Below, one piece after another: positions 9,945 through 10,400 of a DNA stretch of 22,368 bases (position 1 is the stretch's first letter; each line of letters begins with the position of its first letter). The DNA is from a virus, in the IMG/VR virus record IMGVR_UViG_3300035507_000178. One strand, written 5' to 3'. Below the pieces are notes generated by a model that did not search any database, was not told the DNA's origin, and was given only the letters and a program-made list of their open reading frames with translations. Position numbers and translations under genes: made by a program.

Positions 9945-10400
9945 ATGAATATTGATAAAGTAAGAAAATTAATGGAGATTGCAGAAAAATTTTATTCTCC
10001 TAAAAAGTTGGCACATGGAATTAGAGTAGCTAATTATGCATGCAGTTCTATAAAAGAAGGATTTAGTGAAGATGCAATTTATACTTTAGCAGTTTGCCAT
10101 GATTTAATTGAAGATACAGATGCAACTTATGAAGATGTTACTCCAATTTTTGATGAGTATGGAAGCTATTTATTGGAAGCTCTTAAACTTTTAACTTTTG
10201 AACCGGAAAAAGAAACTTATTATGAATATGTTGAGAAAATTGCTAAAATGGCAAATAGTGATAAGTTAAGTGAAAATATTCCTGGCGCTTATGCTTTAAT
10301 TGTTAAAAGAGCTGATATGAAAGATCATTTAACTTTAAAAAATACTTTAACAGATAAAATGAAAGAAAAATATTTACCCGTTATTAAGTTTCTATTGTAA
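9945..10400 (+). CDS. HD-domain protein of the RelA/SpoT hydrolase type (small alarmone hydrolase-like)
   Basis: The His...HD pattern LAHGIRVANY ... AVCHDLIEDTDATYEDV parallels the SpoT/Mesh1 hydrolase motif (LLHDVVEDT). ALIVKRADMKDHL resembles the second conserved block (LIKLADRLHNM). ORF track 9936 is a GTG; ATG 9945 follows the conserved leader. Confidence 0.6.
   Translation: MNIDKVRKLMEIAEKFYSPKKLAHGIRVANYACSSIKEGFSEDAIYTLAVCHDLIEDTDATYEDVTPIFDEYGSYLLEALKLLTFEPEKETYYEYVEKIAKMANSDKLSENIPGAYALIVKRADMKDHLTLKNTLTDKMKEKYLPVIKFLL

Follow-up and report, generated by a model that had tools for sequence, protein, structure and literature searches.

Features of the HD gene and its locus

The window analysed here is the whole 22,368-nt stretch of viral DNA from IMG/VR record IMGVR_UViG_3300035507_000178. 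Within it, an open reading frame (ORF) on the plus strand at positions 9945-10400, hereafter the HD gene, runs from an ATG start to a TAA stop and encodes a protein of 151 amino acids (aa) that resembles the hydrolases of the RelA/SpoT-homologue (RSH) family. A Shine-Dalgarno-like stretch, AAGAAAGGA, lies upstream of the ATG at 9945, while an alternative GTG at 9936 is too near this stretch; the ATG is also the start used by the public protein clusters P0001 and P0002. The identical 151-aa product is recorded in public metagenome collections, and a homologue with 84% identity was found on a 175-kb viral contig. Comparison of the HD gene with this homologue gave a nonsynonymous divergence (dN) of 0.082, a synonymous divergence (dS) of 0.639 and a dN/dS of 0.13; therefore, the HD ORF is a protein-coding gene under purifying selection.

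All large genes of the window except one are located on the plus strand (Table 1). Just upstream of the HD gene, a terminator-like hairpin overlaps a promoter-like TTGATT-N17-TATAAT element. It marks the predicted start of the HD transcription unit. This cassette, a G+C-containing hairpin with a T-run and, directly after it, TTGATT-N17-TATAAT, occupies gaps between genes of the island at 8340-8399, 9855-9908 and 12332-12395, and 14068-14096 holds the promoter-like part by itself. The number of terminator-like sites is raised (7, where 1.5 would be expected), and that of promoter-like sites overall is not (38 vs 36). Three transcription units are predicted from the sequence: a small ORF, the Thg1-like gene and a membrane protein gene; the HD gene, a 120-aa ORF, a nucleotidyltransferase gene and a metallophosphoesterase gene, closed by a terminator-like hairpin at 12332-12369; and an ORF followed by the genes for RNase T and for a cyclic-phosphate-processing receiver-domain (cREC) protein. 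Since the terminator/promoter pairs delimit the second unit, the HD gene appears to be co-transcribed with two RNA 3'-end enzymes, namely the phosphoesterase and the RlaP-like nucleotidyltransferase, whose gene overlaps the flanking genes by 4 and 1 bases. On damaged RNA, RlaP extends the 3'-OH by one or two nucleotides (PMC12776372). The Thg1-like ORF as called mechanically starts at TTG 8605, and the ATG at 8620 is likely the true start, giving 276 aa as in the homologues.

Table 1. Annotated features of the window, with the evidence for each assignment.
Feature	Position	Strand	Basis and remarks
Four phage tRNA genes, Ser(tga), Leu(taa), Gly(tcc) and Cys(gca), with small ORFs between	517-2571	+	tRNA gene calls
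Class-V aminotransferase/cysteine-desulfurase-like protein	2605-3690	-	Aminotran_5, 1.2e-40; sole large minus-strand gene
DUF2828/DUF7788 protein, 504 aa	4239-5753	+	Domain match; recurs near the HD gene elsewhere
Homologue of the eukaryotic major vault protein, 814 aa	5889-8333	+	MVP shoulder and vault repeat
63-aa ORF before the Thg1-like gene	8427-8618	+	Conserved in the closest phages
Thg1-like 3'-5' polymerase (tRNA 5'-end repair)	8605-9450	+	Thg1, 4.4e-29; PHROG 4717, 1.7e-88
137-aa membrane protein, between the Thg1-like and HD genes	9454-9867	+	PHROG 3878 (function unknown)
Terminator-like hairpin (9855-9882, with T-run) overlapping promoter-like TTGATT-N17-TATAAT (9880-9908)	9855-9908	+	Just upstream of the HD gene
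HD phosphohydrolase of RelA/SpoT-hydrolase (small alarmone hydrolase-like) type, 151 aa; sister family of Aph1	9945-10400	+	Motif VKxADMKDHL...TLT...KY, profile, fold
120-aa ORF with hydrophobic N-terminus, second in the predicted HD unit	10411-10773	+	No family match; conserved in the closest phages only
Pol-beta-type RlaP-like nucleotidyltransferase	10770-11558	+	PHROG 388, 6e-22; RlaP, 6e-4, and NTP_transf_2, 0.008 (both under Pfam cut-offs)
Calcineurin-like metallophosphoesterase, candidate 2',3'-cyclic/3'-phosphate end-healing enzyme, last of the HD unit	11558-12334	+	Metallophos, 1.4e-13
His-rich 120-aa ORF (…FHDLDK…HRKHAHHHD…), first of the RNase T/cREC unit	12442-12804	+	No Pfam, PHROG or PDB match
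RNase T/DEDD exonuclease	12823-13626	+	RNase_T, 6e-17
cREC protein	13623-14060	+	cREC_REC, 1.1e-15
RNA ligase (PHA02142 OB and RNA_ligase domains)	14134-15492	+	Domain matches; homologue in locus L001
Second metallophosphoesterase, calcineurin-like	18294-19019	+	End-healing candidate
AAA_33 P-loop kinase	19702-20229	+	End-healing candidate
Third metallophosphoesterase, calcineurin-like	20230-20784	+	End-healing candidate
SPFH/Band-7/flotillin-like protein, 499 aa	20837-22336	+	End of the window; unusual phage cargo

Catalytic residues, profile matches and predicted fold

The original prediction for this gene, made from the sequence of the window, had read a small alarmone hydrolase (SAH) of RelA/SpoT type with a His...HD...(ED) pattern and a second conserved block. 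Both are present in the HD protein (hereafter the query), as H24, H52-D53 and E56-D57 and as K121-R-A-D124-M-K-D127-H128. Conservation was counted among 141 relatives, the cluster representatives of which our family profile was built. H24, H52, Y92, K121 and D124 are invariant, D53, E56, D57, D127 and H128 are at least 96% conserved, and T84, Y95, T134, L135 and Y143 at least 92%, giving the family signature H..RV / HDxxEDT / LT / Y..Y / VKxADMKDHL / TLT / KY. In the alignment the His/Asp ligands and the catalytic residues are thus retained: the metal-binding H...HD...D set includes, besides the three invariant residues, D53 in 140 of the 141 relatives, and the catalytic HDxxED pair is kept as E56 (139/141) and D57 (136/141), followed by T58. 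The query segment HDLIEDTDATYEDV lines up with HDVVEDTDASFEDV of Mesh1.

Searches with the query as a single sequence gave weak matches, yet they are consistent in direction. The Pfam family HD_4, by which such a hydrolase might be recognised, was not matched by the query at E<=0.1, placing it below the gathering threshold of HD_4, and was matched by 16 of the 141 relatives (E<=0.01); the generic Pfam HD family stayed just under gathering (E 4.4e-4, 21 bits vs a cut-off of 22). There were a partial match to NCBIfam spoT_relA (2.4e-6) and a match to PHROG 990, 'metal-dependent phosphohydrolase' (6.7e-12), and the best PDB sequence match was Drosophila Mesh1 (7e-4). The 141-member profile retrieved only RSH hydrolases from the PDB, namely Aph1 (7smg, 6e-14), Mesh1 (2e-9) and RelSeq (4e-9), with Rel, SpoT, PaSAH, MESH1 and RelH at lower ranks, and hhalign aligned the family with Aph1 at a probability of 98.6%.

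The AlphaFold2 model of the query (pLDDT 91.4, pTM 0.87) consists of eight helices. When it was compared with the PDB by Foldseek, Aph1 came first (TM 0.67/0.71), followed solely by Mesh1/MESH1, PaSAH, RelH and Rel/SpoT; ranks 1-24 are RSH hydrolases throughout, and nothing significant came from dNTPases, HD-GYP or other HD subfamilies. Among the predicted viral structures of BFVD, the matches were small phage proteins annotated as (p)ppGpp synthetase/hydrolase. In sequence as in fold, dNTPases, YfbR and other non-RSH HD subfamilies were rejected for want of a significant match, and none matched better than the RSH hydrolases; YfbR-like and HD_3 matches were weak and limited to 2 and 1 of the 141 relatives, respectively. 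The profiles, hhalign and the AlphaFold2/Foldseek comparison therefore bear out, at a level well above chance, the RelA/SpoT-type, SAH-like fold of the original prediction, and sequence and model together confirm the HD protein as a metal-dependent HD phosphohydrolase of the RSH hydrolase fold. Judged by sequence, it belongs to a sister family of the adenosine-3'-pyrophosphohydrolase Aph1 and falls outside the Aph1 family by the published signature. As a component of a defence system the protein was discounted, neither it nor its neighbours having a PADLOC match.

The searches also bear on a different activity, in which the HD protein would be an RNA end-healing phosphomonoesterase or cyclic phosphodiesterase that clears 3'-P, 2'-P or 2',3'-cyclic-P from cleaved tRNA before nucleotide addition or ligation, on the model of the HD domains of HD-Pnk or of bacterial CCA-adding enzymes. 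Those domains gave no sequence match in PDB searches with the query and the profile, and in Foldseek the CCA-adding and tRNA-processing enzymes were insignificant (probability 0.2-0.3, E>1). An end-healing role would suit the RNA-repair neighbourhood described below, and human MESH1, which has the same fold, removes the ribose 2'-phosphate from NADPH, while a MESH1 mutant has been crystallised with PAPS (fold matches 5vxa and 9chy). Meanwhile, the His that the family carries at position 128 in place of an Asn alters the ribose/phosphate environment. However, the three metallophosphoesterases, the cREC protein and the kinase near the HD gene already serve these lesions, and the query retains the E56-D57 dyad and the K-Y contact typical of 3'-pyrophosphohydrolases. 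We consider the end-healing activity unlikely.

Changes in the base pocket

For the comparison of individual residues, the Aph1 sequence was rebuilt from PDB alignments and matched to P0156. Relative to Aph1 and Rel, the query shows a 7-residue deletion in the loop between helix 1 and helix 2, on which hhalign and MAFFT agree, and in the AlphaFold2 model only a 2-residue link remains between the helices at 3-16 and 19-34. The deleted loop holds base-recognising residues, D24-K25-A26 in Aph1 and R43-R44-S45 in Rel of T. thermophilus (TtRel) (PMC10083569). Accordingly, the base-binding loop that precedes the first His in RelSeq (R44-K45) and TtRel (R43-R44-S45) is absent from the query, and the adenine-specificity residue of Aph1, D24, falls inside the deletion. 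Aph1 D116 sits in a 2-residue insertion that this family lacks, and the column of Aph1 R119 is occupied by L131 in the query and by Q, L and R in 71, 27 and 25 of the 141 relatives. In addition, the conserved Asn four residues past the last metal Asp (N114 in Aph1, N148 in RelSeq, N126 in Mesh1), which contacts the ribose in Rel and Aph1, is replaced by His128 in 140 of the 141 members.

The column of Aph1 R96 holds K98 in the query, with R in 52 and K in 25 of the relatives. The pyrophosphate-contacting K-Y pair (K133-Y134 in Aph1) is kept as K142-Y143; position 142 is K or R in 139 relatives and position 143 is Y in 140. As far as the alignments tell, the machinery for hydrolysis of a ribose 3'-pyrophosphate is complete and the specificity determinants of Aph1 are mostly missing. 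Because the base-recognising residues of Aph1 are deleted or changed, an Aph1-like specificity cannot be assumed. Together with the missing HD_4 match, these changes make the query a non-canonical RSH hydrolase.

Size and distribution of the family

When 1.84 billion cluster representatives were scanned by HMMER with a profile of seven sequences (cut-off E<=1e-10), 1,664 of them matched, nearly all of 135-160 aa. This subfamily, marked by the motif 'ADMKDH', is in essence limited to uncultured, mostly large phages, probably of Firmicutes; the G+C content of the window is 29-38%. Among cultured phages, tblastn of the query gave just two unannotated gut phage records, and the family member P0012 gave only partial matches to SAH-like genes of Pseudomonas, Vibrio and Aeromonas phages. 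A consensus-sequence query against cultured phages found no match, probably owing to low-complexity masking, and megablast with 10 kb of the window found none either. In cellular genomes (one per species) only three strong family members were recovered, all from metagenome-assembled genomes or isolates of Clostridia, and RNA-repair neighbours are absent around these three; the other cellular matches are more distant Aph-like HD proteins.

A few members carry additional regions. N-terminal fusions of the HD domain to a GNAT acetyltransferase (P0096) and to a hexapeptide-repeat-like region (P0077) were seen on contigs of 1-2 kb, and a Cys-rich N-terminal extension occurs in P0064, on a very short contig, and likewise in locus L016. 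Apparent fusions to a PolIII finger and to MscS were set aside; they look like gene-calling chimeras and contain only the C-terminal half of the HD domain. The HD proteins are acidic, with a median isoelectric point of about 5.1-5.4 and a net charge of -5 in the query, and an obvious RNA-binding extension is absent.

Conservation of the gene neighbourhood

A scan of IMG/VR provided 80 loci, which together with nine further loci were grouped into 33 lineages at 80% HD identity. Neighbours were sought within 10 kb of the HD gene by using hidden Markov models built from the neighbour genes. RNA-repair-type genes were found in 15 of the 33 lineages. The commonest neighbour is a metallophosphoesterase (10 lineages), followed by the Thg1-like, nucleotidyltransferase and AAA_33 kinase genes (nine each), the DUF2828 and RNA ligase genes (eight each), and the vault protein and RNase T genes (seven each). 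In three lineages, about 800 bp separate the HD gene from a vault-protein gene downstream of it. A Thg1-like, nucleotidyltransferase or phosphoesterase gene is situated no more than 1.7 kb from the HD gene in at least eight lineages, and direct adjacency to one of them is seen in several lineages with 35-50% HD identity, in varying order. For example, the Thg1-like, HD and phosphoesterase genes abut in that order in L004, the HD gene adjoins the nucleotidyltransferase gene in L006 and L012, and the loci of three relatives (35-84% identity) contain the same neighbour set in different orders. On a neighbour-joining tree, the repair-linked lineages are spread over several deep branches. The tRNA-repair operon in which the original prediction had placed the gene stands in part: the repair setting is real and recurs in these 15 lineages, whereas the Thg1-like gene belongs to a separate predicted unit upstream.

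In the other 18 lineages the HD gene is kept among genes of nucleotide metabolism and replication, including those for PolIII alpha, NrdD and its activase, ThyX, dUTPase, guanylate kinase, FolD, DNA ligase and a RecD-like helicase (examples outside repair islands are L080:8042-9253, L021, L043, L061 and L038). Upstream of the HD gene, one of these lineages has an RtcB RNA ligase gene at a distance of 700 bp, and another a YpsA/SLOG gene immediately next to it. Charge was dismissed as an indicator of RNA binding, since the proteins of both context groups are acidic and it does not discriminate between them.

In the window itself, the repair-type genes form an island that covers 5' truncation, 3' truncation, 3' extension, 3'-P/cyclic-P, 5'-OH and nicks. 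The RNA ligase gene is followed by genes for YqeY and NADAR proteins. The ligase, the kinase and the phosphoesterase adjoining the kinase resemble a split Pnkp-type end-healing system. The His-rich ORF was detected by phmmer only in a 99%-identical contig. In the P0007 lineage, a DUF5662 protein of 170 aa is encoded a few genes upstream of the HD gene.

The neighbourhood bears on two further explanations. First, the HD protein could be an immunity protein against a (p)ppApp-synthesising toxin of the phage itself, such as MuF-Apk, in the way that Aph1 confers immunity to Apk2 in a temperate Bacteroides phage (PMC10083569). However, six annotated loci show no RSH synthetase or MuF gene within 10 kb of the HD gene, which argues that the protein is not a toxin-antitoxin partner, and a RelA_SpoT synthetase or MuF domain was likewise not found in the window; as the Aph1 signature residues are also largely missing, such a role is highly improbable. 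Second, a NADAR gene lies nearby and SIR2 and PARG genes occur in relatives, so the protein might hydrolyse another small molecule of NAD/ADP-ribose conflict systems, e.g. NADPH, pAp or ADP-ribose phosphate products. The cREC gene nearby would fit as well, and MESH1 illustrates that the fold can be promiscuous (PMC9765508). Against this, the HD gene has no conserved position next to those genes in particular, and the sequence has no feature that indicates such substrates; we regard it as very unlikely.

Proposed function

RSH hydrolases take the 3'-pyrophosphate off (p)ppGpp or (p)ppApp. Toxic small alarmone synthetases (toxSAS) act in one of two ways, by producing (p)ppApp or by placing a pyrophosphate on the tRNA 3' end; toxSAS systems such as CapRel block tRNA in the latter way and are well-established defences against phages. 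From the fold, the residues and the neighbourhood, we infer a substrate and a role in infection: the HD protein may undo the chemistry of toxSAS as a 3'-pyrophosphohydrolase; its relevant substrate in the island would be pyrophosphorylated tRNA, and it would probably act on (p)ppApp too. We would put the probability of this reading at roughly 0.45.

Under this proposal, a host toxSAS (FaRel2, CapRel or PhRel) would attach a 3'-pyrophosphate to the terminal adenosine of tRNA during infection, and the HD enzyme would strip it off, leaving a 3'-OH CCA end that could be aminoacylated or would be open to further repair by the neighbouring enzymes. Through the opened base pocket, the RNA chain joined to A76 could pass out of the active site, and an Aph1-like enzyme without the loop over the base and the 5' side is a reasonable candidate for an RNA-linked substrate. 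Because the terminal nucleotide of tRNA is an adenosine, tRNA-3'-PP and (p)ppApp offer the same adenosine 3'-pyrophosphate, and (p)ppApp may well be hydrolysed by the same chemistry. Since 3'-P, cyclic-P and 5'-OH ends are already provided for in the island by three metallophosphoesterases, a cREC protein and a kinase, the 3'-pyrophosphate is left without another candidate enzyme. The suggestion in the original prediction that the enzyme removes pyrophosphate from tRNA 3' ends, and does not simply degrade (p)ppGpp, is thus plausible.

A stronger form of the proposal, which we put forward tentatively, is that the 'ADMKDH' subfamily might be a dedicated RNA-repair enzyme in which the base-covering loop was removed to accept the 3'-pyrophosphate on A76 of tRNA. 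It would then be the missing tool in a phage tRNA kit in which 5'-truncated ends fall to the Thg1-like protein, 3'-truncated ends to the RlaP-like one, 3'-extended ends to RNase T, 3'-P or cyclic-P ends to the phosphoesterases and cREC, 5'-OH ends to the kinase and nicks to the ligase, and, if this is true, a natural counter-defence against toxSAS immunity of the CapRel/FaRel2 type.

Several points weigh against tRNA as the substrate. The nucleotide-metabolism or replication setting in 18 of the 33 lineages fits a nucleotide substrate, and no active-site alignment column separates the repair-linked lineages from the others, so one activity is probably common to both groups. The acidic nature of the proteins and their lack of an obvious RNA-binding extension point in the same direction. 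In addition, auxiliary and counter-defence genes of large phages cluster anyway, as the nearby NADAR, YqeY, SIR2 and PARG genes illustrate; this weakens guilt by association, and the proposal presumes a host that bears a toxSAS. The closest characterised relatives, those of the Aph1 family, hydrolyse free (p)ppApp; all 12 of the 12 tested Aph1 homologues hydrolyse ppApp (PMC10083569). Moreover, hydrolysis of free alarmones is also seen in those characterised SAHs for which pyrophosphorylated tRNA is a substrate (PMC7229694; bioRxiv 10.1101/2021.04.30.441581).

The kinship with Aph1, the closest solved relative, the setting in the 18 lineages and the acidic proteins speak at the same time for the main rival explanation, namely that the enzyme is a free-alarmone hydrolase only. 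It would then degrade (p)ppApp and/or (p)ppGpp, with no physiological role on RNA; this would dampen the host stringent response or an abortive infection based on (p)ppApp, and would feed nucleotides back into the pool. The conserved K142-Y143 contact with the pyrophosphate agrees with such an enzyme, and a jumbo-phage 'HD-alarmone PDease' has already been predicted as a counter-nucleotide defence (PMC7824862). On the other hand, the base-recognising loop and residues of Aph1 and Rel (Aph1 D24-K25-A26, D116, R119) are deleted or changed, and if the enzyme acted purely on nucleotides, its recurrent position directly beside Thg1-like, RlaP-like and phosphoesterase genes, in divergent lineages with different gene orders, would be difficult to account for. 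The known alarmone-hydrolysing SAHs act on pyrophosphorylated tRNA too, so that the two roles are not exclusive. We see an exclusive action on free alarmones as a serious if somewhat doubtful possibility; if it holds, the HD protein would be a further member of a recognised class of phage counter-nucleotide enzymes.

Comparison with known systems

Phage alarmone hydrolases, and their undoing of tRNA pyrophosphorylation, are already known. What is new here is the large phage-restricted 'ADMKDH' subfamily as a sister of Aph1, its deleted base-binding loop and Asn-to-His change, and its recurrent, order-shuffled linkage to RNA 3'/5'-end repair genes; in the literature searched, no alarmone-hydrolase-type enzyme was found tied to Thg1-like or RlaP-type repair loci. 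When co-expressed with toxSAS, stand-alone phage SAHs neutralise them, but we know of no native phage counter-defence pathway tied to RNA repair. The conserved link to Thg1-like, RlaP-like and phosphoesterase genes would widen the catalogue of tRNA lesions repaired by phages. Meanwhile, a compact (about 140-150 aa), natural loop-deleted variant would aid the study of how RSH hydrolases choose between nucleotide and RNA.

Among the characterised hydrolases, Aph1 of a Bacteroides caccae prophage (PDB 7smg, PMC10083569) is the best match in profile and fold, is of similar length (143 vs 151 aa) and is also carried by a phage. It shares with the query the H...HD..ED...D core, the Tyr at Y92, the D-x-x-D block and the C-terminal K-Y pair. 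In contrast to Aph1, the query is without the seven residues of the loop and the D116 insertion, has Leu for R119 and His for N114, and does not have an Apk toxin beside it; the identity between the two is about 24-31%.

PaSpo of Salmonella phage SSU5 and PbcSpo of phage PVP-SE1 are, like the HD protein, single-domain RSH hydrolases of phages without a partner toxin. Every toxSAS tested, CapRel, FaRel2, PhRel and PhRel2 among them, is neutralised by the stand-alone SAHs of these two phages (PMC7229694 Table 1; PMC11245113). The SSU5 protein SSU5_099, presumed to be PaSpo, aligns with the family in hhalign at a probability of 96.6% and is not recovered by tblastn with the query. It differs in being a canonical HD_4 protein (7.6e-19) of 213 aa which keeps the R-K base-binding segment, reads 'ADLLDN' where the query family has 'ADMKDH', and has no RNA-repair island around its gene. 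By sequence, SSU5_099 is more distant from the query family than Aph1 is.

The jumbo-phage 'HD-alarmone PDease' (Iyer et al. 2021, PMC7824862) is likewise a phage HD enzyme predicted to act against alarmone-based host responses; however, it was classed as counter-nucleotide defence and not as RNA repair, and the section of that paper on RNA repair (RlaP, Thg1, cREC, ligases) is silent on any HD enzyme of alarmone type. Finally, MESH1/Mesh1 and ATfaRel (PbcSpo) have the same fold and catalytic residues as the query, but they are larger (about 180-230 aa), have the base-binding loop intact and the conserved Asn present, and are cellular enzymes or components of toxin-antitoxin systems. MESH1 and ATfaRel restore the aminoacylation of tRNA pyrophosphorylated by FaRel2 (bioRxiv 10.1101/2021.04.30.441581).

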